DNA from: Amphiscolops sp. MND2022
Taxonomy: Eukaryota
Direction: 5' to 3'
Assembly (NCBI GenBank): GCA_964187785.1
Contig: OZ076412.1
Location: 31,372,001-31,436,000, forward strand
DNA length: 64,000 nucleotides
In this document: in pieces, positions 6,213 through 60,650 of the stretch
Numbering within the stretch: position 1 is the first letter of the stretch
Layout of the letters: each line of letters begins with the position of its first letter
Translations under genes and position numbers: made by a program
Notes under the pieces: model-generated
Told to the model about the DNA's origin: nothing
Databases searched by the model: none
The model's input: only the letters and a program-made list of their open reading frames with translations

Positions 6213-6401
6213 ATATAATGACTGCATGTTTGGGACGTCAATGACACACATCACAAGTGAAGACGTCTCAGGGCACATATCACTGTTGATGACGTCATAA
6301 ACAAAACTTTTTTCCGCAGTTAAGGTAACTTAAAGCACATGTATCACTATAACATTTAAAAAACAGTAAAATCAAAACTGGCCATAAACAAGGTCTCCCA
6401 A

Positions 6402-6949: not shown

Positions 6950-6959
6950 AAAGTATAAA

Positions 6960-14817: not shown

Positions 14818-14866
14818 GAAGAATTTCCCATTTTAATATTTGAATTATATCGGAAAACCAATATTT

Positions 14867-14958
14867 TGAAAGTGTGTGAATGTCAGTAAGGTATATCAAA
14901 TTATGTCCCTCTCAGGAAAGGTGCAGGTTTATATAGTCCTGAGAGCGTGACATTCACA
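14867..14958 (-). mobile_element. Very short LTR-like segment (~92 bp) between an A9 polypurine tract and a PBS-like TGG
   Basis: Minus strand reads A9 (14967-14959), TGTGAATGTCAC, CTATATAAA, CA (14867), AAATAT, TGGTTTTCCG (14860), then gag ATG at 14817. Nearly the same start (A-run, TGTGACTGTCAC) is seen at 30324-30306. Confidence 0.5.
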
Positions 14959-15686
14959 TTTTTTTTTACAAATTTAATTCAGTAATAATACCTATTGGTG
15001 ACACGTGATTATCATTTTCAGTAGCACCTTTGTATTGCACTCGAGTATCTACATCAAAGCTTTCAAGGAATTTAACTCAAAGTGGTTCAAACATATTTGA
15101 AGAAACTGCTCCTAAACAGTAAACAATTACAATCAACAAAGCAGCAACTGTAATTGGGATATTTGACATATGCGTCAACATTCTTAACCACGTGCCGGCA
15201 CACGTGGCCAGGTGAACATGCAATTAAACACATCATCGATTTTCATATTTTTAAAATTCGAACTAGAACGGCCTGAGTTGGCCATTGTACTCAAGTTGGC
15301 CATGAAGTCTTTGCCAGAATTGTCTCAAAGACAGTATATTACAAAAAGCATCAACAAGCAACAAACTTATACATTACGTCCTTTAATCATAATAGCACAC
15401 GAAAGCGGGCAATTTACACACTCTGTGGCCAAAGGCGTACTAATACTTACGCGTAACAGAACATCATGTCTAATGAAAGGGTGAATTGGCCGTTTGACTA
15501 GCTTCATTTAAATGGCAGCTTTTGTTGAGCCAATTAGCCGTAATCGGCATATTGGAGTAATACTTTAAACTAATACCACAAATACTGCGCTCGGATTGGT
15601 TGTTTATCGAATGGAAAACAACGACTCCGTAAAAGGACGTTTCCCCATTTGAACACTTTTCCTTTATACTGCATAATATTCTGCTT

Positions 15687-22937: not shown

Positions 22938-25445
22938 TTTGGCTGGCTAAGAGCTACGGATTTTAGATATCTAATTTGAACTAAGATTCTGCACTAAATG
23001 ATCGAATGATTAAATTGGCCGCAAGCTCCAATTACGTTCAGAGCCTCGTGAAAAAATATTGTGTCCAGGCGATGTTGCTAGTCAACAATGACAGGTTGCC
23101 AACCAACCAAATCATTCTGTGTGCAGTAAACCATAAGCTCAGCAGCACATAAAACATGTGAAGATAGCGAATGAAACTCAACATCTTAACCACATCTATA
23201 CAATATAAGGGTTTAACAATTTGTGCTCAATTAAGTTCGGTAAAAAGTTACTGATTGAAGTGTTCAGTATGAAGTTTTGTGCGTGCAGCTTTCATTTTTC
23301 GTTGCATATTCAATGGCAAGTTTCAACTTGTTTCTGATTCTGACTTCAGCATTGCAAACGTATACATTTAAACCAGAAATGTACTTAAAAACGCCACATA
23401 ATTTTGATCACGCCACATTACGAAAGAGGCGAACCAAGCTTTGGATCTCGAGCTGAAACCAAAACATACTTTAGCTAATTATTGATAATGATTCAACGAG
23501 TCAAAAACTGACCATATTTGGGGACCATCATCAAGTTCCACAGGTCGATGATTCTTGAAAAAAAAACATGACAAGCATGAAACCATCAAAAAAGCCAAAA
23601 AACAGTGCCAAATGACATCTTACGGACGTTTAAGATGTTTAGGTGAATGGAGATAATCAACCTAATCCTTTTTAAATTTCTACGCAATAAGTAGTTTCAG
23701 ACCTTTTTTCTGTGAATTCAGAGCGAAAGGTGTCATTTATTCCGGGTCGTTTGTTTGATGCGAGTCCAAGTGTTGGAACGAAGTTTGAATATGAACGTTC
23801 CTGGTCTTCGGAAATATTAGTTCCTCTAGTTCCATGCTATATCCATGTTTTTTTCATAGGGTGAAAAGAATTATTGTAAGCAGTTAAATTTCAAAAAGTT
23901 TTACTAAAACGAAATTTATGCAGCGGAAAACAATGCATCCTAAAATTTTTTATACACAGTAAAAAATAAATGGTTTCTAGACACAAAAGTGTCAATTTCT
24001 ACGGTATTGCTCAACGTTAAGCTCCAAATTTATCTATCAAGCTTTATCGAAAAAAGTTGTGTGATGATGTGAGAAATAGTAGAGCGGCTGTAAGTGAAAC
24101 TAGCAAAAAAATGGACGGAATATAAGTAAAAAATAGCGATAAGAGTAAAAGGGGATAATCAAGTGCCTTGATTAAATTATCTTTTTTCAACATTTTGGCA
24201 CAACCCATAACTCTGTAAATCGGGTTATCGGCATTGTAGCACGAAGTGATATGTAAATTACTTGAGAAAAACTAGTTCAATTCATTATTTGATAACTAAA
24301 TTTGCCGATACGAAATTGTAGTTTTATTCTTCAACAAAAATGTTTGTTTCAAGAATAATAATTTGTCCCTTTTTTGATCGTTTGAGCCAGAATTCTCAGC
24401 GCAAAATTGAATTTCTAGATTGAAAGCGACTCGAACAAAATACATTTACCGTTTACCTACGCAAACTTGAGTTTCCTATTTATTATAGAAAATGATCAGA
24501 ACTAATCTCTGTTGTGCTCTTTTTCTAAGTAAAGGTTTTTTCACATATACTTATCATCCTCTTTAAAATAGAATTTTGGAGTTCTTCCGAAGGAAAGTGG
24601 TTAAAATGACCCAAACATCGAATTCATCCAAAACTGCAATGAATCAAATTTATCTGCACCGAAGAATATCATCAACGATTGAATCTTCGTCGCTTATTGA
24701 TTTCAGAGCGGGAAACATCGAGGCGGTCAGCTGGGTTCTGGTTGTAAAATTAGAACGTTCAAAGTTTTTAGTCGGCATTGTTCGGCTGAGTCCATAAAAA
24801 GTTCGGGACACTTGTTCGGAAACAAGTTTTTGGACGTATCACTGAAGGTGCATTTGTACGGACTCATGTTTGTACAGCGCTTTCAAAACAAAACTATCCA
24901 CGCGTTGAATGGACGTCTGTAATGTAAGAAGATGTGACTGAAGTGGCTATTAAGTTCACAGTACCTGCCTCCAAAAAGACACATATGCCATAAGAACACT
25001 TAGTGCTAGTGCTACTTACGGTACAGTGACAATTTTAGTTTGTGTTTACGCTAAACTCGATACTTAATTTGGATTAGCGATTCCAGTTTTAATTCAACTT
25101 TATTACCCTTTTGGTCAGTTAATTACATTTAATAAATATATTTTAGTCTCCAAATAATTAAATGATTTGGATCAGTTTAACTTTTTTTCTACTAAACAAA
25201 GTGAACAAAACATCTCGCGAAATACTTATAAGAAATTTAAACGGTTTTTGGAAGAAATTTTTTCAAGATCGCAATCACTTATCAGCAGTGTTCCGGATAT
25301 GATGGAACGCTTGCCAAGATCCATTGCTGATCACTTACCGAGATACTTTTGCGTTTATCTTGCACTATTGGCATAGCTATCATCTTGCAAAAACTTCCCA
25401 AGAGTTTCCAAATGTACCTTTATCTCGACTAGGGTTTCATCCCTT

Positions 25446-26416
25446 CCCTAGTTGAGGGTGCCGGAAATTTTACATGCTGCAGGCTTGCATGCAGGGTAAT
25501 TTTTTAAGAAACCTAGAAAATTCAGTAAGGTTTCGGTGGTAAATCTTGTAGAATTACACTGCCATTTCCACAACTGCAATTAAGTTTGAAAATATTTCCC
25601 ACTTATTTTACGGACACGATCACGATGTATTCACACATTGATTTCTCAAACACTCAACTGATTTAATCACCGCTTCTCAAATAGGACGCTGAAGATGACG
25701 CTAATTTGTTGTTTACATTGTGAATGAAGTTAAACTGCATTGAAATGGCGGCAAAATTGTTGACGTCTCAGCTGCATTTAAAAATGGAACTGATGCATAT
25801 TGAAACTTGCAGAACTTCGCGGCTTGAAATTGCCGCCCAAACTTTGATGATTTTTTAATGCAGCTTGATAAACGTTGGCGACAACAGGGAAATATTAACG
25901 CATTAAAGTTTGCGTAAGATATTTAGAACTGCTGGCAACATTAAAGTGGTGTCGGGTCACAAGTCCGAAAGAATAAAATTAAATTTTTATCGTCCAATAA
26001 GATTTCAGAAATCCAGCATAAGAAATACTTGGCACTGTATAATTCTCTGCAATCTGATTGGCTGACGCAGGCGGACCGGAACGAAGTCCGATCAAAGATT
26101 TTAAAAATGAATTTTTCAATTTCCCCTAGTCAGCTATGTTCACATAGTCCTAGTGCCCTAAATACAGGAGCGAAGCGAAGCGGAGTGACGTGCCATATGG
26201 ACATGCCTCAATGTTGCTACTTGGCGAAGGGAGCAAAGCGACCGAGCCATACAACAAATGTGAAGCATTTTTTCGGACTTGTGCAACCCAAATTCATTTT
26301 CCGACTTGTGCAACCCAAATTTATTTTCGGACTTGCGCAACCCAAATTCATTTTCGGACTTGTGAATAGCCGCCCATTAAAGTACATGCAAAAAGTTCAA
26401 GCATGTTCAACAAGGG
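25446..26416 (+). mobile_element. MITE family A copy carrying a nested insertion
   Basis: Termini CCCTAGTTGA / TTCAACAAGGG; 2-bp TSD TT (25444-45, 26417-18); colinear with 6402-6949 once 25948-26374 and one TSD copy are removed. Confidence 0.85.
25948..26374. mobile_element. Mutator-like MITE (427 bp) nested in MITE A
   Basis: 9-bp TSD CATTAAAGT (25939-47, 26375-83); imperfect TIRs starting GG with shared core TCACAAGTCCGAAA; 27-bp subterminal tandem repeats at ~26270-26364. Confidence 0.8.
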
Positions 26417-26439
26417 TTGTTCAAAATGCTTGAACATTC

Positions 26440-26572
26440 AACGTTCTACATATTTTTGAAGGTTGGCAGCACTTTTTACAATGATTTACTGCAACTCTTA
26501 CGCAAAACTTTCAAGCGTTACCTTTTCCCTAATCCATTCGACCTTTATCAAGCTGATTGAAAGATTCATCAC
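26440..26572 (-). mobile_element. Partial inverted copy of MITE family A 3' part
   Basis: Similar to 5840-5950 (GCAGCACTTTT, CTCTTACG.AAACTTT, TTTATCAAGCTG.TTGAAAGATTCATCA). Confidence 0.55.
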
Positions 26573-29470: not shown

Positions 29471-30066
29471 TTACGTGATTGCAATGGACGTGTCGGAGGC
29501 ATTGTCTAAGGGTCCATCATTAAGACGGTTTTGGACAAGCTCACTTTTCGAATTATTTCTGGCCTTTTCATTTCGCAGAACTTCGGTATTCGTTTCCGGT
29601 CCCTCGGCCGGAACGTTCCATCCTGTCTGTGTCATGTGTCTCGATCCGGCCATGATGGCATTCTGGATTTGGGGTAATACCTGACTACTGATGGCATCAT
29701 TAATTGCCCTCTGAATCTGAACACTGACACTATTCATCATCTCATCCATCTCCCTAGATGTCCTATAGTTCAATTCATTTGATAATCTGTTGATCTCAGC
29801 ACTAGAGTTCGCACTTGTAGAATTTTGACCAAGACCGGCGTTGTTACTAGATCCGATCTCTCTAGGATTAAAGTAAAAATTCGCTTCATTGTTCTCGAAG
29901 AGATTGCTAATGGTACTTTCAGGTCTTCTAGCAAGACTGCCATTCTCACTATCTTCTCTCTCTCTGAGCGTCGCTCACCTAACATTATGTCTAGGTTTTC
30001 TATGTCTGAGAGCATTTCTAGTTCTCTCTATTTCCTAGCTTTCTTTTGCTTTCTAGTGGTAGGCAT
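29471..30066 (-). pseudogene. 5' part of Gypsy gag (same family as 13522-14817), frameshifted and truncated
   Basis: MPTTRKQKK..MLSDIENLDIMLG and SVQIQRAINDAISSQVLPQIQ match the 14.3-14.8 kb gag. Confidence 0.75.
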
Positions 30067-30105
30067 TGAAGGATATCCGAGCGAGAATATTTAACTTAAC
30101 TCTGT

Positions 30106-30305
30106 NNNNNNNNNNNNNNNNNNNNNNNNNNNNNNNNNNNNNNNNNNNNNNNNNNNNNNNNNNNNNNNNNNNNNNNNNNNNNNNNNNNNNNNNNNNNNNN
30201 NNNNNNNNNNNNNNNNNNNNNNNNNNNNNNNNNNNNNNNNNNNNNNNNNNNNNNNNNNNNNNNNNNNNNNNNNNNNNNNNNNNNNNNNNNNNNNNNNNNN
30301 NNNNN
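30106..30305. other. Assembly gap (200 N)
   Basis: Run of N; true size and contiguity unknown. Confidence 1.
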
Positions 30306-31319
30306 GTGACAGTCACATTTTTTTACATATTTAGCAAGTAATAAGTACAACAACATACTCAAAATGCATGGTATCAAAATATCCCACTTATATTCCACAG
30401 TCCTCAGGTATCACGTGAGCAACATTTTAAAGGGTATTAAAGTTTACGCCGCAACATCAAACAAACTATTGTATTCTAATAAATACTTCCATCTTAGGAA
30501 TGTCAACAAATATTCTTCGCTATGGCAGGTATGCAGAGATGGCACGTTCCGCCACGCGAGCACTGCTGAGTTTAACTAAGCATAAGAATATATGATTACA
30601 TGTAAGGGCCAACATAGTACTATGGCATAATCCGGATACTTAGTCTAACATTGAAACAGTTATGGCAGTCAGGGCTAACTCAATTTAGTACGGGTGGTAT
30701 TGCACTTTACACATTCTGGTCTGAATGGGCTATTTGCCTCATATCAAATAAACATCATTGATTTCTCGGTGCATAGCCTTAAAAGGCAAATAATACCAAG
30801 TCTGGGGTATTAGTTGATAATTACTGCATAGAAACAATTACTTAACGCGTAGAATACAAACACATAAACACTGGTTAACTATAAGTATATATAACCTCAT
30901 AGTTGCATCTTCACTTGAAACAGCAGTAATCGGCCGTTTGACTGAAATACTAATCAGAAGTAGAGGAGGTGCGTCATTTGGCGTTATTCGGCCAATAATA
31001 TATAAAAGCGTCAGTGAAGTAACAAATGGTGAAAACTGATCAGACGTGACTACGTGCTCAAGTGACGTTCCGGAAAAGCACTCTACATCACTTGAACACA
31101 TTTTCTTTACTGCCTTACAGTTGTATTCAACTTGCATCGGTTTAATTTACATTTAGAGCGTCTTTTGACAAATTCTAACAACTTGAATTGGAATTACAAA
31201 AATTTTACACTTAACAAACTAATACTAGAAGCTCCATTACTAAATTGGTGTTGTATAATTACTAAGGTGTAGGACATAACATAAATGTGATATTCGTTAA
31301 AAGTTCGTTGAGCTTTCAT

Positions 31320-32104
31320 CTAAAAGAACGGCAATGTACCTTGCATGATCTCTTGTCCGTCCGCAGTTGTCGTGATCAATGATCCGTCACAGGCGGCCGC
31401 CTGTGACACTGCGGGTGCAAGGAAAAGAAAAGAACCGACGTTCAGACCATCCTCGTAAGCTTCGCTTCTCAGTCGTGTTATGTGTTCCAGCTCAATTCTT
31501 CGGGTAGATCTCTCCAGTTATCAAGCTACTCTTTCTCTTTTAATTTCCTCCACAAATCTGCCGCAAACCATACATCCTGTATAGCACACTTCACTAACGT
31601 TCTCGTACGGTTTCGTATTCTGGATGTTATATGAAGCTCTAAAGTCGAGGTCAGTTGATTGTACCAAAGGGGAAATAAGAGATGGCCCTCTTTCAATCGG
31701 CGGAGAGGACATTGGCGACTCTACGACAGGGAGCAAGGTTTTACATAATTCTATTTTCCTCTTCCCATTTCCTTTGGGGGAGCGTGACAAAGTTTCTCGT
31801 CAAAAAAAGTGGCCTTGAAATTAGGCGTTACCAGCGGTCTCGACAGTGATGTGCTTGGCCCTGCGACCATTTCTTTCTCTATACTGCCCGTCGTCATTAC
31901 TCTTCCGCCAATCAACATAGGACTCGTAACCACTTCTTTCTCGATACGGGCCACTAACTCTTCAGTATCTGATGAAAAGTCAGACTCCCTTTCTCCAGAT
32001 TGGTCCTCTTCCCCACTAGAAATGTAGATTACTGAATCATCTGAGGCGTCAGAGCTGACATCGCCCATGTCGAACAGTTTTCTTGAGAGGTTAAACTTCT
32101 GCAT
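31320..32104 (-). pseudogene. Accessory ORF Z (~260 aa reconstructed), unknown function
   Basis: 31751-32104 frameshifts at a T-run (~31800) into 31521-31790, which continues in frame past TGA TAA to ...YEDGLNVGSFLFLAPAVSQAAACDGSLITTTADGQEIMQGTLPFF* (TAG 31320-22). Acidic N-terminus; CMVCG (CxxC) motif. Confidence 0.65.
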
Positions 32105-32958
32105 GATAAATTTCCTAGCAATTTTGGCGAATTGAGCATCGACTTGTGTTCAGCAAATTCAAAATCAGAATGAATTGGTCGGTTGACTCGCTTTAGGCCA
32201 TGTTAGGATGTTTCCCGGGATTCTCGATTTGGCGGTAGAAACATTAGGCAACTATCCTAAGTCGGCCTAATTTTTCCTGAATGGAACTCCACTGATTGCC
32301 GACGGCCTTGGAAATCCCGATGTTTACCCCTCATCAACACCATCATCAGAAGAGGCGTGAACAGCGCTTGGGTCGTTAATATCAAATAGACTCGTCTCAA
32401 GTGGGTAATTAAGAGGTTGCTTGAGGTCAACTAACGGCACGCTACGGTTAGCTTCTTCCAGAATGGCTCCAGCCAATCAGACACGTTCTACGATAAAATG
32501 AATAATAAATAATAAAATGGTGAAAATTAAAAATCTTAAATATTTCAAAATGGATGAAAATCTAACTAAAAAATAACAAGTCATCAAAGCAAAACGGCGA
32601 AACGAAACAGGGTAAACGGCCATAATCGGCTTCAAACTAACTAAGTTGTAAATAACGAAAAACCTTCTGTACATTTCGCTGGCAGACTCCATACACAGTT
32701 TTAACTTTGTAAATAACCATAGAATATTAGTCAGGTAAATTTTCAACCAGCCATCTGACGATTGTCTTCAAGTCGATCACAAACTTCAATATCATGTCTT
32801 CAAGTTCAGGTCGGTCTGGATTTTCGTTTTTGAACTAATTTAACTTGATCAAGTCTAAATTTTGTTCACAAGTCGCTTCCTGTTTCCATCAATTGGCACG
32901 TGATGACACACTTCATTCAAATTTACAAAAGACTTCCGGAAGGTTTCTAAAGCGTTGA

Positions 32959-34067
32959 ATGGATTTCTTTCAAGGAAGCTCACCTTCAAATTCCATATCA
33001 TTCGGTTCAGATAAACAGGGATTTCAGTTCACTGAATGTGCACAGATACCAGACTCTGGTTTCAACACAATCCCTGCTCCAATCATGGTTCGTTCCCCAC
33101 CTCCTTTTCCTCCTATTAGATCACCCAGCAGTACTGACAGTAATGTGGAAGTCACTGCATACGCCGAAGAAAGGGCCCAAATCCACGAAGATGCACAAAA
33201 GCTAACAGGCCAACAGAAAAGCGGGCAACTTGCGGAAGATTATGAAGAAATAGAAGATGAAGAAGAAGACGAAGACGGAAAGAATGAGTCAGATAAGTTG
33301 TCTTTTGCCCATCCCAGGACCGAAGCAACTTCCCTTCGCATTCCTACTAAGGCCCCTACACCTGGTACAACTGAAACTGCTGTGGAGCTGAACTTGACTC
33401 ATTTGGAGACTGGACTCAGAGTTGCCACTCCCTCTAGAACTGCACTGCTTGATCTATTACCGGCTGTAGATCCGGTTAATGGGACGTCCCCGGCGTAATT
33501 CCTGCAAACTGAAACTGATGACAGTTCATCCTTTTGCGATGCACCCACCCTTCCCCAAGGAGAAAACAAAGTGAGATTCCCCGATGACTCCACTGGAGCC
33601 GAGGAAACCGGGGACGCATCCAGCCAAGCCAGTGGCCCAGTCCTAAAAGAATACAACCCAGTAGAGAAGAAAATGAGCCTCCTGCCAGGGAGGTAGAAGC
33701 CTTGCCCGGATCTTCCGGCTACTTGACCAATCAGACAGCGCCAACCACTTCCGCGCCGCAAGATGCAGGGTTACAGGAATTGTCTGGACGAAGTAGGGCA
33801 ATTCTGAAGCAGTACTTTGATGAAGATACTGAAGCTATAACTTTCCCTTTAGGCCATCGAACAGTACCCTTCACAGAACCTATGTTGTATCATCTCTTTC
33901 GTTTCCTAACTGACGAGACCGTGAGAATGTCCTACACCGCCATAGAACGAATGGTAATAGGAGCGGTCAGGGGAACACCAGTCACCTCTGGGTCTAGAAT
34001 TGACCACTTCAAGACTCGGTATAGAGCCCAAATACCAAGGTCAAGGCTGTTTTTGAGCCTCAGATAG
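32959..34067 (+). pseudogene. Accessory ORF Y (antisense to pol), copy A
   Basis: Track ORFs 32959-33498 and 33702-34067 are separated by one TAA and a 5-nt insertion that are absent in copy B. Confidence 0.6.
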
Positions 34068-34220
34068 GGCGTCGACTTATGCAGTTCCTGGCTTGCTCCA
34101 ACTTTCATCCGACATGTTCACTTCAACTACTTCAACTTCTTCCTTACTTGGTGACTCGTCTGCAACTTTCATTTTGTCGGTGTAACCACAGTAGTCTGCT
34201 TTTCAACACAGCTCCAATCC

Positions 34221-34490
34221 TCACTTGTAGGAGACTCCGAACCGTAAGTTCATTTCTTGATCAATTGCATCTTCGAAAATTCTGACATATTCTTCTCCTG
34301 TGACGTTCCTAGCCCCTCTTCCAAATTCCCTCCTGTTCTTACAATTGAGTGATGTGTTGAGCACTCGTTGAAGATCATCGTAACATGCAAGCCATCGTAA
34401 AAATGTTACGTAAACGTTTGAAATAATTGAAAACTCAAATGAAATAGCCCTCCTTGCCACGATGAATGTTCTTTGACAAAATGAAGCCAT
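34221..34490 (-). CDS. Accessory ORF X (89 aa), copy A; unknown function
   Basis: ATG-initiated ORF just downstream of integrase, open in all three copies; core YVTFLRWLACYDDLQRVLNTSLNCKNRR. Confidence 0.45.
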   Translation of the reverse strand: MASFCQRTFIVARRAISFEFSIISNVYVTFLRWLACYDDLQRVLNTSLNCKNRREFGRGARNVTGEEYVRIFEDAIDQEMNLRFGVSYK

Positions 34491-35468
34491 TTGTTTAATT
34501 CAGTTCACTGTTACCAGTTTTCGTTACCAAGTTTGTCATTGATTCTTTTTGACTTTGTTGTCTAGTCCAAACCTTTTAAGTTTAAAGTACCAATGCCGTC
34601 AAAAGTTCAAAATTTCATCCTTTCCGAATGCTTATTCAATTCAAAGGTCAAAAGTTTTAACCGAATTACATGACCATCTTGCATGACTGCAAACTTAGTG
34701 AACTTTTAGGAACCCAATCACCTTTTTCCCGGCCTTTTGCAGGTAGTTAACTGGTGGCTTAAGATTGGTTCTTAGGTTTAGTCCCCGCTTTGGGTAGGCT
34801 CATTAGAACAAAAATATTCAGTTTGAGCAGTGACTCATATTCAACATTTGTGATAGTCTTTGTCAATGACTGAGGAATGAGAGTCAACAAATTCACCTCA
34901 GCTGCTTAATGAGAACTGCTGTTCAGTTCACTTAACTCTTTGAGTAATTTAATAGTCTTTCTGTTCAACCTCAACTTTCTGTTCAACTCTGAATTAACTC
35001 TTGTTTCTTATTCATCTTGTTTCCTGAGTTCGCGAGGCGTGCACTAAACACCTCCTATCAGCACTTGTTTCACTATATCCCGCTTGGATGCAACTACTGA
35101 TTTCTCGGGGTTTAGTAAGAACGTTATGGTGGTACTCGATTCACTGTGATCCTTGCCTTTCATCTTGGAGCCACGCGTCCAATTTAAAATTAAAATGGAT
35201 GAATCGACAACCGGGTTGAAATCATCATCGAATTGCAGCTTTGGGTCAATCTTTTTGTGTGTCTTGTAATCCTTCCGACGTTTGTTCTCATTGCGAATGA
35301 AACTCTAGATAGGCCCTAGGTTTTTCCTACTAACACCACCTTTCTCTCCAATCGAAGTTTTCTAGCCATACTTTCTACTAGCCCAATCACCCAGCGGTTT
35401 CTCACCGGCGAATAGTGTTTTTAACGTGATTACTTTTCAAATTGCCGCTGTCGGATCTGCTTTATTCT

Positions 35469-36238
35469 CTGTGGAGCTGAACTTGACTCAATTGGAGACT
35501 GGACTCAGAGTTGCAACTCCCTCTAGAACTGCACTGCCTGATCTATTAACAGCTGTAGATCCGGTTAATGGGACGTCTCCGGCGTATTTTCTGCAAACTG
35601 AAACTGATGACAATTCATCCTTTTGCGATGCACCCACCCTTCCCCAAGGAGAAAACAAAGTGAGATTCCTCGATGACTCCACTGGAGCCGAGGAAACCGG
35701 GGACGCATCCAGCCAAGCCAGTGGCCCAGTCCTATAAGAATACAACCCAGTAGAGAATGAGCCTCCTGCCAGGGAGGTAGAAGCATTGCCCGGATTTTCC
35801 GGCTACTCTACCAATCAGACAGCGCCAACCACTTCCGCGCCGCAAGAAGCAGGGTTACAGAAATTGTCTGGACGAAGTAGGGCAATTCTGAAGCAGTACT
35901 TTGATGAAGATACTGAAGCTATAACTTTCCCTTTAGGCCAACGAACAGTACCCTTCACAGAACCTATGTTGTATCATCTCTTTCGTTTCCTAACTGGCGA
36001 GACCGTGAGAATGTCCTACACCGCCATAGAACGAATGGTAATAGGAGCGGTCAGGGGAACACCAGTCACCTCTGGGTCTAGGATTGACCACTTCAAGACT
36101 CGGTATAGAGCCCAAATACCGAGGTCAAGGCTGTTCTTGAGCCTCAGACAGGGCGTCGACTTATGCAGTTCCTGGCTTGCTCCAACTTTCTTCCGACATG
36201 TTCACTTCAACTACTTCAACTTCTTCCTTACTTGGTGA
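35469..36238 (+). pseudogene. Accessory ORF Y, copy B (5'-truncated)
   Basis: 35426-35737 and 35786-36238 are in the same frame, separated by a single TAA at 35735-37. Confidence 0.6.
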
Positions 36239-36304
36239 ATCGTCTGCAACTTTACTTTTGTCGGTGTAACCACAGTAGTCTGCTTTTCAACACAGCTTCA
36301 ATCC

Positions 36305-36574
36305 TCACTTGTAGGAGATTCCGAACCGTAAGTTCATTTCTTGATCAATTGCATCTTCGAAATTATTGACATATTCTGCTCCTGTGACGTTCCTAGCCCC
36401 TTTTCCAATTTTCCTCCTGTTCTTACAATTGAGTGATGTGTTGAGCACTCGTTGAAGATCATCGTAACATGCAAGCCATCGTAAAAATGTTACGTAAACG
36501 TTTGAAATAATTGAAAACAAAAATGAAATAGCCCTCCTTGCCACGATGAATGTTCTTTGACAAAATGAAGCCAT
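36305..36574 (-). CDS. Accessory ORF X, copy B
   Basis: 89-aa ORF homologous to 34221-34490. Confidence 0.45.
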   Translation of the reverse strand: MASFCQRTFIVARRAISFLFSIISNVYVTFLRWLACYDDLQRVLNTSLNCKNRRKIGKGARNVTGAEYVNNFEDAIDQEMNLRFGISYK

Positions 36575-37129
36575 TTGTTTAATTCAGTTCACTGTTACCA
36601 GTTTTCGTTACCAAGTTTGTCATTAATTCTTTTTGACTTTGTTGTCTAGTCCAAACCTTTTAAGTTTAAAGTACCAATGCCGTCAAAAGTTCAAAAGTTC
36701 ATCCTTTCCGAATGCTTATTCAATTCAAAGGTCAAAAGTTTTAACCGAATTACATGACCATCTTGCATGACTGCAAACTTAGTGAACTTTTAGGAACCCA
36801 ATCACCTTTTTCCCGGCCTTTTGCAGGTAGTTAACTGGTGGCTTAAGATTGGTTCTTAGGTTTAGTCCCCGCTTTGGGTAGGCTCATTGGAACAAAAATA
36901 TTCAGTTTGAGCAGTGACTCATCTTCAACATTTGTGATAGACTTTGTCAATGACTGAGGAATGAGAGTCAACAAATTCACCTCAACTGCTTTATTGAGAA
37001 CTGCTGTTCAGTTCACTTAACTCTTTGATTAATTTGATTGTCTTTCTGTTCAACCTCAACTTTCTGTTCAACTCTGAATTAACTCTTGTTTCTTATTCAT
37101 CTTGTTTCCTGAGTTCGAGAGGCTTGCAC

Positions 37130-39360
37130 TAAACACCTCCTATCAGCACTTGTTTCGCTATATCCCGCTTGGATGCAACTACTGATTTCTCGGGGTTCAG
37201 TAAGAACGTTATGGTGGTACTCGATTCACTGTGATCCTTGCCTTTCATCTTGGAGCCACGCGTCCATTTTAAAATCAAAATGGATGAATCGACAACCGGG
37301 TTGAAATCATCATCGAATTGCAGCTTTGGGTCAATCTTTTTGTGTGTCTTGTAATCCTTCCGACGTTTGTTCTCATTGCGAATGAAACTCTAGATAGGCC
37401 CTAGGTTTTTCCTACTAACACCACCTTTCTCTCCAATCGAAGTTTTCTAGCCATACTTTCTACTAGCCCAATCACCCAGCGGTTTCTCACCGGCGAATAA
37501 TGTTTTTAGCGTGATTACTTTTCAAATTGCCGCTGTCGGATCTGCTTTTATTCTCTTCGAGATTCCATGCAGGGTTACGTACTCAGCTAAAATTTTCAAG
37601 AAAATTGTCGGAAGGTGGATTTGACGAAAACAACGCGTCTAAGCATCCTGTATTATAATCTACTAGGACTAACATTTACATTGTCCCTTTTGGGGCTTTT
37701 TGAAAAGAACCTAACAAAATTTGGATCGAGTTCAGCAAAATCTGACAAAACTTCATAGAATAAATTTTCCACCACCGGTATTTTCCTGAACACTTTTTGT
37801 GAATTCGTACATGTTATATTTCAACCTGCTTGACAGCATTGTGGAAACTTTTTCACTTTCTCGACAAACTTTATGTGGATTCTCGGCCACCACACAAACC
37901 CTCCGTTCTCACTGCATCGCTTCTCTGTCACGGAGCTTGAATTGAATTGCGGTTGACTAATTAACAGTCGCGCATGTCTTTTACAATCACTATCCTTTCA
38001 TTCAAGTATAACAACCTGCTGTCATCTAAGTAGGATCAGGTCAACTTTCCCTCGATGGAGGTGGTAAATGGCAATTTGTGCAGTATCAGGATTTCATACT
38101 AATTTCACTATATTGTGGGGGCGGTGGTCCTTCCCAACCTTAAACTGTACGTATACGTTGGTAATTGTTGACTAGCCTAATTGATGACTGCTTTCCGCTA
38201 TTCTAGATGATGTGTTCTGACTGTTCCTTTTGACTTTTTAGTTGTAATGGCGTTCGACACCTCACCGTTTTGTTTTAATAACATCAATGAAGTTGCGGTA
38301 GCTTAATCACAAATTGCCATTTACTACCTCCATCGAAGGAAAGTTGACCTGATCCTACTTAGATGACAGCAGGTTGTTATACTTGAATGAAAGGATAGTG
38401 ATTGTAAAAGACATGCGCGACTGTTAATTAGTCAACAGAATTCTGAATCGTTCTTAGTTTCATTCGCAATTCTCTTTGGTTGTCTCGATTTCACGAGACT
38501 TGTCTCACTCAAGTCCCTCTCAAAATCATTGACAACATTTACAACTGTTTCGATTTTTTTGTCAAACCCAAAGTTCTTCACGAAATCAGCGCCACAGAAA
38601 ATCGAATGGTTTTAACATGTCAGCCAATCTGGTTAATCTGCTTGAAAAACTATTAACTTCTTTTTCCCTTCAGCTCCATTTTCAAGGCTTTGTGATTCAC
38701 AATTGTGTCCGATTCTATCCGGGAACATAATTTGTAAGCAGTGACCGACCACAATGCGACTGATTGGTATCGAATATTTTGCTTCAAACTCCGTTAAATG
38801 TCTTCATGCCAAAGCCATCCGTTTCCTGCAATTCTTTTCCAACTGTTGTATTACTGGCAGTAACCTTTGCTCGTTAGCATCGCAAAGAAATCTCGATAGC
38901 GATAATGTTTGTTTCGATTAGTTTTGTCGTTTTGCTAAACCTTTTTACATGTTCCTAAGACCTCAATTTACATCCCATTTTGGTATATAAGGATTTGGAA
39001 CGCATTCAGCTGCTGAATACGGGAAAAACAAGTTTACTGAGATAACGACACCTGATCACGACATGAGAACTTTCATATTCGAAGGTCTCAGCTTTTCTGT
39101 AAACCTTCCAAATTGTCGTTAAATGGCAAACCCTCCAGTTCGTCAAATTGAAGCCATACCAATCAATTTACTCTGTTGCAATGTTGCTCATCCCTCCAAC
39201 GTTTTGCAGTAGTAACTGTATGAAGAGTTTAATTGTTTGTGTACGTTAGACCCACCGATGAGTAGCATTTCAGGTCTTCATCACTGTAAAGTCTCTCCGA
39301 CAACTTTTTCAAAATAAATTCTCAAGATTTGCTATTTGGTTTAGTCTTATATACTTGTCA
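37130..39360 (-). pseudogene. Duplicated Gypsy pol remnant (RT part, RNase H, integrase)
   Basis: Near-identical to 42290-44436. Confidence 0.8.
38308..38436. repeat. 129-bp inverted copy of 37952-38080, inserted in copy 1 only
   Basis: Near-exact reverse complement; the equivalent site in copy 2 (~43470-43480) reads TAGCTTCTGAATCG with no insert. Confidence 0.95.
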
Positions 39361-39865
39361 TATATAAATATACATATATATACCCTCATCAACATCATCA
39401 TCAGAGGAGGCGTGAACAGCGCTTGGGTCGTTAATATCAAATAGACTCGTCTCAAGTGGGTAATTAAGAGGTTGCTTGAGGTCAACTAACGACACGCTAC
39501 GGTTAGCTTCTTCCAGAATGGCTCCAGCCAATCAGACACGTTCTTTGATAAAATGAAAAATAAATAATAAAAAGGTGAAAAATAAAAATCTTTAAAATTA
39601 AAAACATTTCAAAATGGATGAAAATCTAACTAGAAAATAACAAGTCATCAAAACAAAACGGCGAAACGAAACAGGGTAAACGACCATATTCGGCTTCAAA
39701 CTAACTAAGTTGTAAATAACGAAGAACCTTCTGTACATTTCGCTGGCAGACTCCATGCACAGTTTTAACTTTGTAAATAATCATAGAATAATAGTCAGGT
39801 AAATTTTCTTCAGCCACGAACTCCAACTTTCTATTTTCTGATTGTTACACAATTCAATTCCTTAT

Positions 39866-40097
39866 TATTTGAATTCTTGTCTGTAATTTTCATAACGCCA
39901 ATCATCGTCCTCTTCCGTCTCCAACTTTATTGCTAATTTCTTCCCCCTCGGAGCATTCTGAATCGTCTTCCCTTCTTCTGCCGAAATCGGTCAACTTCCC
40001 GAACTTCAACCAGCCATCTGACGATTGTCTTCAAGTCGACCACAAACTTCAATATCATGTCTTCAACTTCAGGTTGGTCTGGATTTTCGTTTTTGAA
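39866..40097 (-). pseudogene. Accessory ORF W remnant (sense strand), unknown function
   Basis: Manual translation FKNENPDQPEVEDMILKFVVDLKTIVRWLVEVREVDRFRQKKGRRFRMLRGG, then after a shift LAIKLETEEDDDWRYENYRQEFK*; a ~200-bp part is deleted in copy 1. Confidence 0.4.
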
Positions 40098-40221
40098 CTA
40101 ATTTAACTTGATCAAGTCTACATTGTGTTCACAAGTCGCTTCCTGTTTCCATCAATTGGCACGTGATGACACACTTCATTCAAATTTACAAAAGACTTCC
40201 GGAAGGCTTCTAATGCGTTGA

Positions 40222-41339
40222 ATGGATTTCTTTCAAAGAAGCTCACCTTCAAATTCCATATCATTCGGTTCAGATAAACAGGGATTTCAGTTCACTGAAT
40301 GTGCACAGATACCAGACTCTGGTTTCAACACAATCCCTGCTCCAATCATGGTTCGTTCCCCACCTCCTTTTCCTCCTATTAGAGCACCCAGATCACCCAG
40401 CAGTACTGACAGTAATGTGGATGTCACTGCATACGCCGAAGAAAGGGCCCGAATCCACGAGGAGGCACAAAAGCTAACAGGCCAACTGAAGAGCGGGCAA
40501 CTTGCGGAAGATTATGAAGAAATAGAAGATGAAGAAGAAGACGAAGACGGAAAGAATGAGTCAGATAAGTTGTCTTTTGCCCATCCCAGGACCGAAGCAA
40601 CTTCCCTTCGCATTTCTACTAAGGCCCCTACACCTGGTACAACTGAAACTGCTGTGGAGCTGAACTTGACTCATTTGGAGACTGGACTCAGAGTTGCCAC
40701 TCCCTCTAGAACTGCACTGCTTGATCTATTACCGGCTGTAGATCCGGTTAATGGGACGTCTCCGGCGTAATTCCTGCAAACTGAAACTGATGACAGTTCA
40801 TCCTTTTGCGATGCACCCACCCTTCCCCAAGGAGAAAACAAAGTGAGATTCCCCGATGACTCCACTGGAGCCGAGGAAACCGGGGACGCATCCAGCCAAG
40901 CCAGTGGCCCAGTCCTATAAGAATACAACCCAGTAGAGAAGAAAATGAGCCTCCTGCCAGGGAGGTAGAAGCCTTGCCCGGATCTTCCGGCTACTTGACC
41001 AATCAGACAGCGCCAACCACTTCCGCGCCGCAAGATGCAGGGTTACGGGAATTGTCTGGACGAAGTAGGGCAATTCTGAAGCAGTACTTTGATGAAGATA
41101 CTGAAGCTATAACTTTCCCTTTAGGCCATCGAACAGTACCCTTCACAGAACCTATGTTGTATCATCTCTTTCGTTTCCTAACTGACGAGACCGTGAGAAT
41201 GTTCTACACCGCCATAGAACGAATGGTAATAGGAGCGGTCAGGGGAACACCGGTCACCTCTGGGTCTAGGATTGACCACTTCAAGACTCGGTATAGAGCC
41301 CAAATACCGAGGTCAAGGCTGTTTTTGAGCCTCAGATAG
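40222..41339 (+). pseudogene. Accessory ORF Y, copy C
   Basis: Stops at 40768-70 and 40918-20 plus the 5-nt insertion; otherwise homologous to copies A and B. Confidence 0.6.
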
Positions 41340-41492
41340 GGCGTCGACTTATGCAGTTTTTGGCTTGCTCCAACTTTCATCCGACATGTTCACTTCAACT
41401 ACTTCAACTTCTTCCTTACTTGGTGAATCGTCTGCAACTTTACTTTTGTCGGTGTAACCACAGTAGTCTGCTTTTCAACACAGCTTCAATCC

Positions 41493-41762
41493 TCACTTGT
41501 AGGAGATTCCGAACCGTAAGTTCATTTCTTGATCAATTACATCTTCGAAAATATTGACATTTTCTGCTCCTGTGACGTTCCTAGCCCCTTTTCCAATTTC
41601 CCTCCTGTTCTTACAATTGAGTGATGTGTTGAGCACTCGTTGAAGATCATCGTAACATGCAAGCCATCGTAAAAACGTTACGTAAACATTTGAAATAATT
41701 GAAAACTCAAATGAAATAGCCCTCGTTGCCACGATGAATGTTCTTTGACAAAATGAAGCCAT
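41493..41762 (-). CDS. Accessory ORF X, copy C
   Basis: 89-aa ORF homologous to 34221-34490. Confidence 0.45.
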   Translation of the reverse strand: MASFCQRTFIVATRAISFEFSIISNVYVTFLRWLACYDDLQRVLNTSLNCKNRREIGKGARNVTGAENVNIFEDVIDQEMNLRFGISYK

Positions 41763-42289
41763 TTGTTTAATTCAGTTCACTGTTACCAGTTTTCGTTACC
41801 AAGTTTGTCATTGATTCTTTTTGACTTTGTTGTCTAGTCCAAACCTTTTAAGTTCAAAGTACCAATGCCGGCAAAAGTTCAAAAGTTCATCCTTTCCGAA
41901 TGCTTATTCAATTCAAAGGTCAAAAGTTTTAACCGAATTACATGACCATCTTGCATGACTGCAAACTTAGTGAACTTTTAGGAACCCAATCACCTTTTTC
42001 CCGGCCTTTTGCAGGTAGTTAACTGGTGGCTTAAGATTGGTTCTTACGTTTAGTCCCCACTTTGGGTAGGCTCATTGGAACAAAAATATTCAGTTTGAGC
42101 AGTGACTCATTTTCAACATTTGTGATAGTCTTTGTCAATAACTGAGGAATGAGTGTCAACCAATTCACCTCAGCTGCTTCCATTGAGAACTGCTGTTCAG
42201 TTCACTTAACTCTTTGAATAGTTTAATAGTCTTTCTGTTCAACCTCAACTTTCTGTTCAACTCTGAATTAACTCTTGTTTCTTATTCAT

Positions 42290-43250
42290 CTTGTTTCCTG
42301 AGTTCGCGAGGCGCGCACTAAACACCTCCTATTAGCACTTGTTTCGCTATATCCCGCTTGGATGCAACTACTGATTTCTCGGGGTTTAGTAAGAACGTTA
42401 TGGTGGTACTCGATTCACTGTGATCCTTGCCTTTCATCTTGGAGCCACGCGTCCATTTTAAAATCAAAATGGATGAGTCGACAACCGGGTTGAAATCATC
42501 ATCGAATTGCAGCTTTGGGTCAATCTTTTTGTGTGTCTTGTAATCTTTTCGACGTTTGTTCTCATTGCGAATGAAACTCTAGATAGGCCCTGGGTGTTTC
42601 CTACTAACACCACCTTTCTCTCCAATCGAAGTTTTCTAGCCATACTTTCTACTAGCCCAATCACCCAGCGGTTTCTCACCGGCGAATAATGTTTTTACCG
42701 CTGTATTGTTTTTCAAATTGCCGCTGTCGGATCTGCTTTTATTCTCGTCGAGATTCCATGCTGGATTACGTACTCAGCTAAAATTTTCAAGAAAATTGTC
42801 GGAAGGTGGATTTGACGAAAACAACGCGTCTAAGCATCCTGTATTATAATCTACTAGGACTAACATTTACATTGTCCCTTTTGGGGCTTTTTGAAAAGAA
42901 CCTAACAAAATTTGGATCGAATTCAGCAAAATCTGACAAAACTTCATAGAATAAATTTTCCACCACCGGTATTTTCCTGAACACTTTTTGTGAATTCGTA
43001 CATGTTATATTTCAACCTGCTTGACAACATTGTGGAAATTTATTCACTTTCTCGACAAACTTTATGCGGATTCTCGGCCACCACTGCATCGCTTCTCTGT
43101 CACGGAGCTTGAATTGAATTGCGGTTGACTAATTATTAGTCGCGCATGTCTTTTACAATCACTATCCTTTCATTCAAGTATAACAACCTGCTGTCATCTA
43201 AGTAGGATCAGGTCAACTTTCCCTCGATGGAGGTAGTAAATGGCATTTTG
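42290..43250 (-). pseudogene. Gypsy integrase remnant
   Basis: LYLNERIVI.KDMR, WWPRI, C..C QAG, DFA, VLVDYNTG, EYVIQHGISTRIKADP, GLVESMAR..R: zinc-binding and DDE-core motifs, frameshifted. Confidence 0.85.
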
Positions 43251-43599
43251 TGCAGTATCAGGATTTCATACTAATTTCACTATATTGTGGGGGCGGTGGT
43301 CCTTCCCAACCTTAAACTGTACGTATACGTTGGTAATTGTTGACTAGCCTAATTGATGACTGCTTTCCGCTATTCTAGATGATGTGTTCTGACTGTTCCT
43401 TTTGACTTTTTAGTTGTCATGGCGTTCGACACCTCACCGTTTTGCTTTAATAACATCAATGAAGTTGCGGTAGCTTCTGAATCGTTCTTAGTTCCATTCG
43501 CAATTCTGTTTGGTTGCCTCGATTTCACGAGACTTGTCTCACTCAAGTCTCTCAAAATCATTGACAACATTTACAACTGTTTTGATTTTTTTGATTGAA

Positions 43600-43990
43600 T
43601 CCCAAAGTTGGCTTGAGATTCTAGTATTCTGTCAAACCCAAAGTTCTTCACGAAATAAGCGCCACAGAAAATCGAATGGATTTAACATGTCAGCCAATCT
43701 GGTTAATCTGCTTGAAAAACTATTAACTTCTTTTTCCCTTCAGCTCCATTTTCAACGCTTTGTGATTCACAATAGTGTCCGATTCTATCCCGTGAACATA
43801 AGTTGTAAGCAGTGATACCGACCGACCGCAATGCGACTGATTGGTATTGAATATTTTGTTTCAAACTCCGTTAAATGTCTTCATGCCAAAGCCATCCGTT
43901 TCCTGCAGTTCTTTTCCAACTGTTGTATTACTGGCAGTAACCTTTGCTCGTTAGCATCGCAAAGAAATCTCGATAGCGATAATGTTGGTT
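43600..43990 (-). pseudogene. Gypsy RNase H remnant
   Basis: LCDANEQRL, RHLTEFETKYSI, NHKAL, SRLTRLADMLNPFDF, RTLGLTEY. Confidence 0.85.
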
Positions 43991-44099
43991 TCGATTAGTT
44001 TTATCGTTTTGCTAAACCTTTTTACATGTTCCTAAGACCTCAATTTGCATCCCATTTTGGTATATAAGGATTTGGAACGCATTCAGCTGCTGAATACGG

Positions 44100-44740
44100 G
44101 AAAAACAAGTTTACTGAGATGACGACACCTGAACACGACATGAGAAGTTTCATATTCGAAGGTTTTAGCTTTTCTGTAAACCTTCCAATTTGTCGTTAAA
44201 TGGCAAACCCTCCAGTTCGTCAAATTGAAGCCATACCAATCAATTTGCTCTGTTGCAATGCTGCTCATCCCTACAACGTTTTGCAGTAGTAACTGTATGA
44301 AGAGTTTATTTGTTTGTGTACGTTAGACCCACCGATGAGTAGCATTTCAGGTCTTCATCACTGTAAAGTCTCTCCGACAACTTTTTCAAAATAAATTCTC
44401 AAGATTTGCTATTTGGTTTTGTCTTATATACTTGTCATATATATATTTTTGATTGCTATGTTTAATTCGTCCGGGTTCATGGGAATTTTCACAGATCGAT
44501 GTTTCCTCACAGTTATTACGTAGGCTGTATGCCTTTAGACATCATCATTTCTTTCGTCTACCTTCTCAAATGCCGCTCTTTCAATTAACCTCTTTAATCC
44601 AACTGTGATTTTTTTGAATTATAATATCCGTTATGTTCATTCGACTTCCCTTTTTATTGGATTTTTATGATTTTTAACATTTCTGTTTCGCGAAAACAAC
44701 TCTGGAAAGTCTCCAGTGTTTTATTTTGTTTCTTCGCTTG
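44100..44740 (-). pseudogene. Gypsy reverse transcriptase remnant lacking the YxDD core
   Basis: VITVRKHRSVKI..DELNIAI, DKY..NLENL, YSSVGLTY, TAKRC then jumps to IATEQIDWYGF at ~44275; no YxDD block in either copy. Confidence 0.8.
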
Positions 44741-44804: not shown

Positions 44805-45034
44805 TCTTAGTAAGATTTTTCTTGCCATATTGGGCTTCTTAGTAAGATTTTTCTTGCCATATTGGGCTTCTTAGTAAGATTTTTCTTGGAAACATGGCTC
44901 TCTTGATAAGATCTTACCATGGCATCTTGCAATTCTTGGCAATATCTTGTCACGATCTTAGCTAAGATTTTTCCAAGATCTTGGCAAGATCTTGCCAAGA
45001 TCTTACTAAGATATCCATGGAGGGTCGACCCGGG
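44805..45034. mobile_element. Right arm of non-autonomous family B element, with 32-bp tandem repeats
   Basis: Near-identical to 49750-49902; ends AGGGTCGACCCGGG|TA; 32-bp unit at 44805, 44837, 44869; no left end found. Confidence 0.75.
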
Positions 45035-45099
45035 TAGCCATTCTCATCCGATGATTCAATTCGAGACCTTTTGCGCGACTAGTATCTCTCTTTTTCTCT

Positions 45100-48934: not shown

Positions 48935-49902
48935 CCCGGGTTGACCCTCTTACTAGCATCTTGGCTGTCTTGGCAAGATCTTGCCAAATTCTTACTACAT
49001 CTTGGCAACCATGGATCCCATGGCAAGATTCTTATTCTTATCACGATGGACAAAATTTTAAGATTATAAAAAACCACTATACCTTTGGTACAAGCAGCCG
49101 AGACTCAATCTAAAGGCTCATTTCACCCAACAACGACTATTTCTACTCGTTTTCATAATCAAAATGCTTAAACCTGCTGAAAAAAAATTTGCATGCAAAA
49201 ATGCGTGAAAAATTACGATAACGTATTCTGGCTTCCGAAATTTTGACGAGAATCCTTATAAGTCCTCACCTGTTTAAGACTGAGAAATGCGAATGTACCA
49301 AATGAAAGGTCATATCGAGGGCTTTCCAAAACTTGTCATTTATCACTCCTGTCAATTCCAGAGGCGGAGAAATATGCTCTCAAACGTCCAGACCCACTAT
49401 CGGAAAGTTACAAAGGAAAGACCTTAAAATCCGGAAATTTTTGTAAAATTCATATTTTCAGCTTTCTTATAGCCTGTTTCAGCAGCCTTATTACTGCTAG
49501 AAACCGCGGTCGTTGCACTAATTTGGGTAATGATTCAGCTCGAGGCTTTTCTGACGCCGTTGTTGGCGACAGTTTTGCAATTGAAAGAACAATTTAACCA
49601 GCGTCTTCCTAAATGAATATCTCTTCAATCAAATTTTATACATTGCTAACAGAAGTTTTAATGTCTAACAATACAAATCTGCAGAAATGTTGATTTTTGT
49701 TGACTTCCTTTCAAATTTTTCTTTCCAAATAGGATTTTAGAATAAAAGTTTTCTTGGAAACATGGCTCTCTTGATAAGATCTTACCATGACATCTTGCAA
49801 TTCTTGTCAATATCTTGGCAAGATCTTAGCTAAGATTTTTCCAAGATCTTGGCAAGATCTTGCCAAGATCTTACTAAGATATCCATGGAGGGTCGACCCG
49901 GG
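48935..49902. mobile_element. Non-autonomous TIR element family B (968 bp; CMC/EnSpm-like)
   Basis: TIR CCCGGGT(T/C)GACCCT; 2-bp TSD TA (48933-34, 49903-04); subterminal arrays of AAGATCTTG-type short repeats on both arms. Confidence 0.85.
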
Positions 49903-51829
49903 TATAACTATAGTTATATAAACGTTTTCTCAGAAAAAAAACTTTTACTCCCACGAATCTCGTTGCTCTTTCCGAGATACCAAGGCAGCAGTTTTTGAAA
50001 ATGGCCAGCAAGAAAACCTCATAATAGAATCTACAAGAACAAACGGCTGCAATCGAGGTATGGATATTCCCATTAAATTATTAGTTCCCATTAAATGTCG
50101 TTGTCACTGTTGTATTTCAGACATAAAACGAATAAACTTTTAAAAATGATATTTCTCTTCTGGTAATAATTTCACTTTTGCACTGCTAATATTAGTGTGT
50201 GATTTCTACAATCATTTTGGCGGCACTGTCATTTTCTTTGAAGTGCACAACTTTTGTCAATTCTTGAAAACACATTTTGGTAGGTGAGAAAACCAACTTT
50301 TGTCAATTTGTCAATTCTTGAAAAAATCAAAACTTCCCCGATTGGCGTCGTAATGATAGCAACGTAAACGAAATTAAAAGTTGATAAACACTGATACGAA
50401 ATGACGAGACGCCGTTTAGCCATCTAGTTGGTAAACAACTACATGTGTTATTCTTTCATCCGGACGATGGGTTCGGTTCACCAACTCATAACACCTTCCG
50501 TCCCCCCTCGTGGATTCTTCCTCACTTTCTGCAGGTTCCCGGCCACACGAAGTCGGCTTTTTGAAATAAATCATTGTTTGTACCTCCATCATCACTTGTG
50601 GGTGGCGTGTCTTGCAACAACTATTATTTCAACCGTAAAAACTTTTAGTTCATGGAACACAACCCGAGGCCCACTTTGTTTTTGTTTTTCCTAAATTTCA
50701 AATTTCAGTGTGATTTTTGCTCGCATTGTGGAGCTTCAGTTTGTCTTTTGAGCTCGTTTGATTTGAATTGTATTCATTTTCTCCGATAAATCGTTGTTTT
50801 CACAATCGTTATCTTGGTAATCCACTTCCTCGTCTTCAATCCCTACGTCCGGGTATCTCTGAAGGTTCTCGACAATTTTCAGCTTTCCGAATTCATCCCG
50901 AAAAACCCTACCCCTTTGAAGCGTAGTTTTTTTCATCGACCACTGAAAGGTAATATCCGTTCTTTTGCACGATGTTGTACATTCCAAGTCTGAGAAGCAG
51001 GAGTAAGTGGGAAGGAGTCTCGCACTAAACCAAAAACTTTCAAATTTGCGAAAATTGGAGGGAGACCAATGGGTCCCCCTTAGGATTTTTTTGGCGCTAA
51101 TGCAACTTGAACAAAAAACTATTCAATCGAAAGCGCTTTTTAATTGCTACGAACAACAAAGCGTTTTGCCAGCATGGAAGGCCACGTTCGTTTTTTCGGT
51201 GTATTGCGACTTAATGAAAATTTTTTAAAAATTACAAAACACAAAAAAAGTGCTCAAAAGATTTAATTCAGTTTTTGGTTTTTTGAGGTTTTCTGAGAGC
51301 AAAACACTTGTTGGAGTATAAAGTGTGACCCTATTGATATTTTTTGGTCCTGTGGAACGGATGAAAAATTTTCAATTTTTGTTTGGTCAAAGTGTACCCC
51401 TTTCACGTTCATAAATGTTTTCGGCTGAAAAAAAAACATTTTGCTTTTTGTCACAAAGAGACATTGTCCGGAAACAACATGTTCCAAAAAAGTTTTAAAA
51501 TGGGTTTCTTGTTTCCAGTTGAGGAAAAATTGATATGCGAGTCTTACGCGTATCCCTTTGGGTACGTTACAGGATTGAGAGGTTTACAAAACTTCAGCCA
51601 TTGTATCCTTTGCCAACTGAAGAAACTTCTTTCTGTTTCTTTTTCAGAAATCAAGATTCTCGCGGCTTGTTTATTTTACTTCTTTGCATGGTCTTGGCGT
51701 GACTTATTTGTTCTGCGGTGTAGTTCTGGGACATTTCCTCTGCACATCGTTCATATAAGTTCGGAACATGCTGGCTTCAGAAAAAAACGGTTGTGAGGAC
51801 CATACGTCATACCTGACTGAAATACTATC

Positions 51830-57691: not shown

Positions 57692-57924
57692 TATGTTTAT
57701 TCGAAAAGCAACTTCAATTAATTTTTGACTTAAATGTCTCCGTTCACTCTTGAACGCTTTGATACGACCTTGCCTTTACTTTCTTCTTGCTTCGGTCAAA
57801 CTTATTTAGTTTTCAACAAGACGCCTGCAGAGCAGCGAGATGATTTCCGCCCCAAACAGTTCTTCAACTACATAAGTTGGAGGCTCAATTCTAGCCAATG
57901 CACTACAAAAACGCTACGAAGTTC

Positions 57925-60573: not shown

Positions 60574-60650
60574 AAAATGCATTAAAACGGTAAAAAAAAA
60601 TTGAAAATTTTTGCAAATTTTCTCATTTTTGGACTCAATTTTTGGTCACT
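59250..60650. repeat. Diverged ~185-bp tandem satellite
   Basis: TCGAAAA(T/C/G)TTGA at 60004, 60188, 60374, 60560 (spacing 184, 186, 186); GTCAATTT.AG-like motif recurs with a similar period further left. Confidence 0.75.

Follow-up and report, generated by a model that had tools for sequence, protein, structure and literature searches.

A Gypsy clade of Amphiscolops sp. with a sense accessory gene and a predicted five-exon antisense gene between pol and the 3′ long terminal repeat

Genes and elements in the window

We analyzed a 64,000-nucleotide stretch of the Amphiscolops sp. MND2022 genome (contig OZ076412.1, positions 31,372,001 to 31,436,000; here called the window), which contains the broken 3′ part of a Gypsy element with two accessory genes on opposite strands. 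An earlier note on this DNA had described a complex bidirectional accessory module in a metazoan Gypsy; the module is conserved, under selection, and not env-like, but it comprises two genes instead of four. The sense gene, Z (31323 to 32104, minus strand; ~260 aa), has an acidic N-terminal part and a CxxC motif. It had been predicted at this size and is borne out, being broken in the window copy and selected in relatives. The antisense gene lies on the plus strand, where 40222 to 41309 holds the first ~384 codons, also broken. These codons belong to exon 1 only. Thus, the antisense open reading frame (ORF) Y, proposed at ~396 aa, reflects a real gene, but the full gene is ~3 times longer and has introns, and its remainder is missing here. 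Between the two head-to-head genes lies a noncoding spacer (39383 to 40221, assigned to neither strand; formerly ORF W), in which islands of sequence, and also a CCAAT box, are conserved.

Genomic relatives define the element's 3′ end. A genome search with 30306 to 32330 returned at least 44 matches (best 40 of 1,813 candidates scored), several of which stopped precisely at window position 31408 and ran over an N gap (30106 to 30305) into 30105 to 29491. We therefore place the 3′ long terminal repeat (LTR) of this accessory-gene clade at 31408 to ~29491 (minus strand), a segment matched by solo LTRs and by the 5′ LTRs of relatives. The last ~29 codons of Z lie at the LTR start, and the LTR end holds a copy of the gag start (30090 to 29513). 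It follows that the polypurine tract (PPT) proposed at 30318 to 30324 is internal to the LTR; the expected site (31409 to 31440, minus strand) is a pyrimidine tract ending ACCCGCAG, within Z codons. At 12849 to 14964 the window contains a further decayed piece from this clade, comprising LTR and gag sequence and including an inverted gag fragment (12849 to 13522).

At the other end, homology to the four nearest relatives stops at 41308 to 41319, and neither the accessory clade's pol nor the later exons were found in the window or the next 30 kb. The earlier note had ended pol at ~42290; no pol motif lies near this position, and the pol in question belongs to an unrelated simple Gypsy. Its decayed gag-pol (42325 to ~45850, minus strand) aligns in pieces to residues 127 to 1391 of a 1,558-aa single-ORF Gypsy, a family whose six fetched loci are ~5.3-kb elements with LTRs of 181 to 206 bp and without an extra region; its pol is 23 to 26% identical to that of the accessory clade. 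The segment 41320 to 41605 (minus strand) is probably the acidic tail of the same pol, its contiguity with 42325 being suggested by the CCTCC target duplication described below. A ~230-bp high-copy repeat is inserted in the simple Gypsy remnant at 44805 to 45036 (at least 37 other copies at 98 to 100% identity among the best 40 of 1,568 candidates; related copy at 49715 to 49904).

A solo BEL/Pao LTR (41606 to 42324, plus strand) bears the 5-bp target duplication CCTCC on both sides and has copies at ~34334 to 35050 and ~36418 to 37135. This ~720-bp repeat occurs genome-wide as direct pairs ~8 kb apart; the LTRs of three fetched pairs were 94 to 99% identical, and both BEL/Pao parents whose ORFs were scanned had Pao Peptidase_A17 (one also DUF5641). 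ORF X (41493 to 41771, minus strand) is a chance frame over the end of this LTR: 166 of its 279 nt lie within the LTR, and a frame of that size arose in 74% of 500 shuffles. A Pfam scan of ten window ORFs gave nothing above cut-off.

The duplications that had been reported around the module are confirmed by self-alignment: 39383 to 44446 is repeated in tandem at 32328 to 39369 (plus strand; 92 to 97% identity, with an inner 2.09-kb repeat). Second copies of the spacer (32105 to 32958; lacking ~200 nt) and of the exon 1 fragment (32959 to 34037, plus strand; further partial duplicate at 35468 to 36121) are present, and a 137-bp inverted copy of 37944 to 38080 lies at one duplication breakpoint (38308 to 38443). 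Since all three BEL LTR copies carry the same target duplication, the duplication arose after the chimera had formed and the BEL element had inserted. Judged from these alignments, the window copy is a decayed 3′ remnant fused to a foreign element, then hit by the BEL insertion, and then duplicated, because homology ends at 41308 to 41319, the pol is foreign, the BEL LTR is solo, and the clade's own pol and later exons are absent. The suspicion that the region is foreign DNA unique to this copy applies to the pol end and X, which come from other elements, but not to Y and Z, which recur in many intact relatives.

Elsewhere in the window, sequence is also duplicated in tandem at 57922 to 64000 (2.65 kb at 98.5%, containing smaller repeats of ~185 bp), which is either real or an assembly effect, and 5800 to 6950 and 25440 to 26571 are elements with long inverted arms resembling miniature inverted-repeat transposable elements.

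Intact relatives and the exons of the antisense gene

Protein searches with Z and Y (best 150 matches scored of 7,821 and 3,550 candidates, respectively) yielded many matches in open frames of 274 to 350 codons (Z) and 678 to 730 codons (Y). All 10 young loci, drawn from five families, had LTR pairs (97.4 to 100% identical; nine at ≥99.3%), a gag of ~570 to 590 aa starting within the LTR, a pol of ~1,735 aa, and a ~6.2-kb post-pol region. The paired LTRs (1.49 to 1.96 kb) have TG...CA ends and a short target duplication. In copy A1, Pfam identified a gag with CCHC and a pol in the Ty3/Gypsy order (protease, reverse transcriptase [RT], RNase H, and integrase), and A AAA AAC stands at the gag-pol overlap in the four copies shown. 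The primer binding site (PBS) TGGTGACAGGAG adjoins the 5′ LTR; the genome contains 3,430 exact PBS-LTR junctions (a count of junctions, not of intact elements), compared with one for the reversed control. The accessory Gypsy clade is large, very abundant, and recently active. As gag starts ~590 to 650 nt inside the LTR (window 29513 to 30090; L041 and L042), each 3′ LTR and solo LTR bears a ~200-codon gag fragment.

With P0087, a divergent protein, as the query, 13 further loci were reached, 10 of them with LTR pairs (97 to 100%). A far clade, whose pol is only 60 to 67% identical to that of the first (near) clade, has an identical layout. One far-clade copy (L182-L183; G000:C8:59.33 Mb) has its antisense gene and gag tandemly duplicated. 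The near-clade copies compared at the PPT site (the window, L041, L047, L055, and L059) have no purine tract bordering the 3′ LTR and instead show the pyrimidine run with ACCCGCAG in Z codons, resembling a splice acceptor; four far-clade copies have a short purine run, (A/G)GGGGAG, before the 3′ LTR. Near-clade copies with identical LTRs exist despite the missing purine tract. Features of an env-type third ORF were not seen: there was no env Pfam match and, in six pieces, no R-x-K/R-R and a maximal 19-residue hydropathy of 0.2 to 1.5, in agreement with the earlier statement that no signal peptide, transmembrane anchor, or furin site is obvious. We regard the element anatomy, with its two real accessory genes, as almost certain.

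The antisense region comprises three large ORFs bounded by splice-like sites, with two short exons between them. Among 29 copies inspected, four oppositely oriented copies and one in which the gene is duplicated were excluded (one further copy was skipped), leaving 24, near-identical pairs included. Intron 1 had GT in 24/24 and AG in 22/24 copies, intron 2 had GT in 23/24 and AG in 24/24, and intron 4 had GT in 24/24 (within one codon of the extrapolated border) and AG in 20/24. Intron 3 was present with GT-AG in 18 copies and exactly absent from six; it is kept in the far clade, and its absence is one change on the exon 2 tree. Intron lengths ranged from 60 to 156 nt, and P0087 lacks intron 1. 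GT-AG introns thus stand at homologous sites across copies. In copy A1, the exons sum to ~1,308 codons (two borders a few bases off), with an open exon 5 frame. Such sequence patterns make it very probable that the antisense region is a single five-exon gene, spliced as predicted, which ORF-only annotation breaks into three unrelated "hypothetical" proteins.

The gene is probably present in other genomes as well, because the best G000 matches of the database relatives P0087 and P0488 are 35 to 44% and 27 to 31% identical, respectively.

Selection, descent, and possible role

Both accessory genes, including all exons of the antisense gene, are under purifying selection. Between families, synonymous sites are near saturation, and ratios of nonsynonymous to synonymous substitution (dN/dS) are given where measurable: 0.02 to 0.04 (finger region), 0.04 to 0.08 (helical segment), 0.11 to 0.37 (acidic N-part), 0.05 to 0.14 (exon 2), 0.01 to 0.09 (exon 3), 0.03 to 0.21 (exon 4), 0.06 to 0.25 (exon 5), and 0.06 to 0.30 (Z), with pol at 0.01 to 0.06 for comparison. 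The higher value of the window Z against its nearest old relative (0.69) is what two decaying copies should give. Opposite-strand frames had pN/pS of 1.0 to 1.3.

The spacer has no shared ORF, and its gaps are mostly nontriplet. Its near-clade islands include a 19-mer and the CCAAT box, neither of which was found as an exact motif in the far clade. With these properties, W is best read as putative promoter and untranslated-region sequence; stop-free sense frames of 50 to 101 codons occur in it, and a short translated upstream ORF may be among them.

Trees of pol, the antisense exons, and Z conflict (L041 to L207; copies of this genome only), and across seven families synonymous divergence (pS) is 0.72 to 0.81 in the accessory genes versus 0.48 in pol. 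By these comparisons, accessory modules are swapped between families on a common pol backbone and diverge faster than pol.

The antisense protein consists, in order, of an acidic disordered N-part, a helical segment, a C2H2 finger, an RNase-H-like meander, a long helical region, and a basic C-terminal tail. The finger has an invariant C-x2-C...H-x5-H with an upstream Trp; it matches U1-type (RNA-binding type) fingers structurally and has no zf-BED Pfam match. The protein aligns weakly in structure to Hermes residues 361 to 605 (8EDG) and weakly resembles ZBED/FAM200/GTF2IRD2-like clusters. Its catalytic positions, placed by eye against the genome's own hAT ORFs, are apparently not conserved as a D-D-E triad and C/DxxH, the sites being variable or nonacidic in 11 to 13 rows, and there are no terminal inverted repeats (best inverted match of 12 to 14 nt versus 10 to 14 nt in controls, 6/6 copies). 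There is no Pfam or profile match to hAT transposases, and for their insertion domain and C-terminal dimerization domain the results point both ways; we lean toward descent from a catalytically dead hAT-type transposase.

Our preferred reading, to which as a whole we give a probability of about 0.5, takes this probably hAT-derived protein for a likely regulator that binds DNA and maintains expression of its family. Transcription of both genes would start in the ~1.05-kb spacer and proceed outward. The introns would outlast reverse transcription because they are reversed on the genomic RNA and hence unspliceable, and the exact loss of intron 3 would stem from recombination with cDNA of a spliced antisense mRNA. 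The protein would bind the spacer or LTR in the nucleus, an action on DNA suggested by the combination of zinc finger, acidic region, dead transposase body, and basic tail. That it acts positively, as an activator or antisilencing factor, we propose only tentatively. Fast divergence and module exchange would be in keeping with a family-specific factor that is in conflict with silencing by the host, as VANC is. The fullest version, in which an intron-bearing DNA-transposase gene was captured, held antisense, disarmed, and turned into such a factor whose alleles are swapped in an arms race, is doubtful as a whole.

Alternatively, the antisense protein could serve a replication step, such as the export or packaging of RNA, import into the nucleus, the choice of targets, or the priming of the plus strand at the atypical PPT, binding RNA or integrase and not promoter DNA. 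The U1-type finger and the near clade's missing purine tract fit this, and Rev-like roles have been proposed for plant antisense ORFs in the available text of PMC11963269; we consider it unlikely, as the module is exchanged independently of pol, contrary to a tight partnership with RT or integrase, and the simple Gypsy of the same genome transposes without such a gene.

A slightly less favored option is that the antisense gene restrains the element for copy-number control, through LTR repression by its protein or through antisense RNA feeding small-RNA silencing. Any antisense transcript would be complementary to ~4 kb of the genomic RNA, a role discussed for plant elements (PMC7264820, in part), and dead or truncated transposases are frequently repressors, e.g., in the P element (PMC6719617, in part). 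However, protein-level selection on each exon makes RNA alone insufficient, thousands of junctions and many identical-LTR copies indicate little restraint, and the quicker divergence and swapping of accessory modules fit conflict better.

If the region were merely a passenger, either a hAT transposon nested in the element or a host gene, and perhaps a transposase that is still active, this would account for the introns, the gene's own orientation, and the weak hAT likeness. Such a passenger is very improbable and largely refuted: position and orientation are constant in two clades whose pol differs by 33 to 40%, all exons are selected, inverted repeats do not exceed controls, catalytic residues are not conserved, and the clade's pol adjoins the gene in 12 of 13 divergent loci fetched (the remaining locus has a nested insertion). 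Least credible is a single element whose own pol is followed directly by four accessory ORFs. Y and Z are indeed real genes on opposite strands, but X crosses the BEL LTR end, W is noncoding, and the pol is foreign; for X and the pol junction, this version is refuted.

Comparison with known systems

Like hAT elements (Hermes 8EDG and dead derivatives), the antisense protein has a C2H2 finger, a three-stranded meander, a long helical region, and C-terminal helices in order; it differs in its ~500-aa acidic N-terminal extension, unconserved D-D-E and CxxH residues, lack of terminal inverted repeats, and carriage in an LTR element. If hAT ancestry is true, a class I element has turned a class II gene into one of its accessory genes. 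In complex retroviruses, nef overlaps U3. Z is likewise a sense ORF overlapping U3, but the accessory clade has no env and is not a retrovirus, and no homology was found. HTLV-1 HBZ, as described in part of PMC11963269, is, like the antisense gene here, an antisense accessory gene in the 3′ half.

Bdelloid rotifer LTR elements are metazoan Gypsy elements with a non-env accessory gene exchanged among mobile elements, their ORF3 encoding a GDSL esterase or DEDDy exonuclease with intact catalytic residues (PMC5408684, in part). The word "intron" is absent from the main text of that article, whereas the gene described here is antisense, predicted to be spliced, and seemingly catalytically dead.

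Plant and fungal elements are known to carry antisense ORFs in the interval from pol to the 3′ LTR. In the available portions of PMC7264820 and PMC11963269, the origin and function of these ORFs are stated as open, a likeness to other transposable elements is said not to have been found, and an examination of spliced antisense transcripts is called for; the Retand pol-to-LTR region spans 2.9 to 6.6 kb, and Grande gene23 has an upstream promoter of its own and encodes a product that is nuclear. Plant Retand, Grande, and RIRE2 share with our clade a long pol-to-LTR region with conserved antisense coding, for which regulation has been proposed. Here, in contrast, the host is an animal, the gene has four introns and ~1,300 aa and is transposase-like, a sense partner enters U3, and gag starts inside the LTR; the Retand-type domain TRP28 (PF04195) has no Pfam match in the accessory proteins. 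Our literature search, with subscription journals, supplements, and repeat databases outside its scope, found no antisense gene, spliced or resembling a transposase, in any animal Gypsy, and no closer case appears in the available text of PMC8220671, PMC13524379, or PMC13547354. The clade offers an animal test case with thousands of junctions, many copies that are very young, selection resolved by exon, an intron whose gain or loss serves as a marker, and alleles that have been shuffled.

VANC, the antisilencing protein of the Arabidopsis VANDAL elements (PMC6719617 and PMC13547354, each in part), is likewise an element-encoded, family-specific, fast-diverging accessory factor. The likeness is a functional analogy only: VANDAL is a plant DNA transposon, no sequence relation was seen, and antisilencing by the antisense protein is putative. 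A regulatory role, if true, would make the antisense protein a candidate for a counter-silencing factor encoded by an element and acting in an animal germline, and the captured-transposase reading, if true, would give VANC a counterpart in animals and trace where an antisense accessory gene of an LTR element came from.
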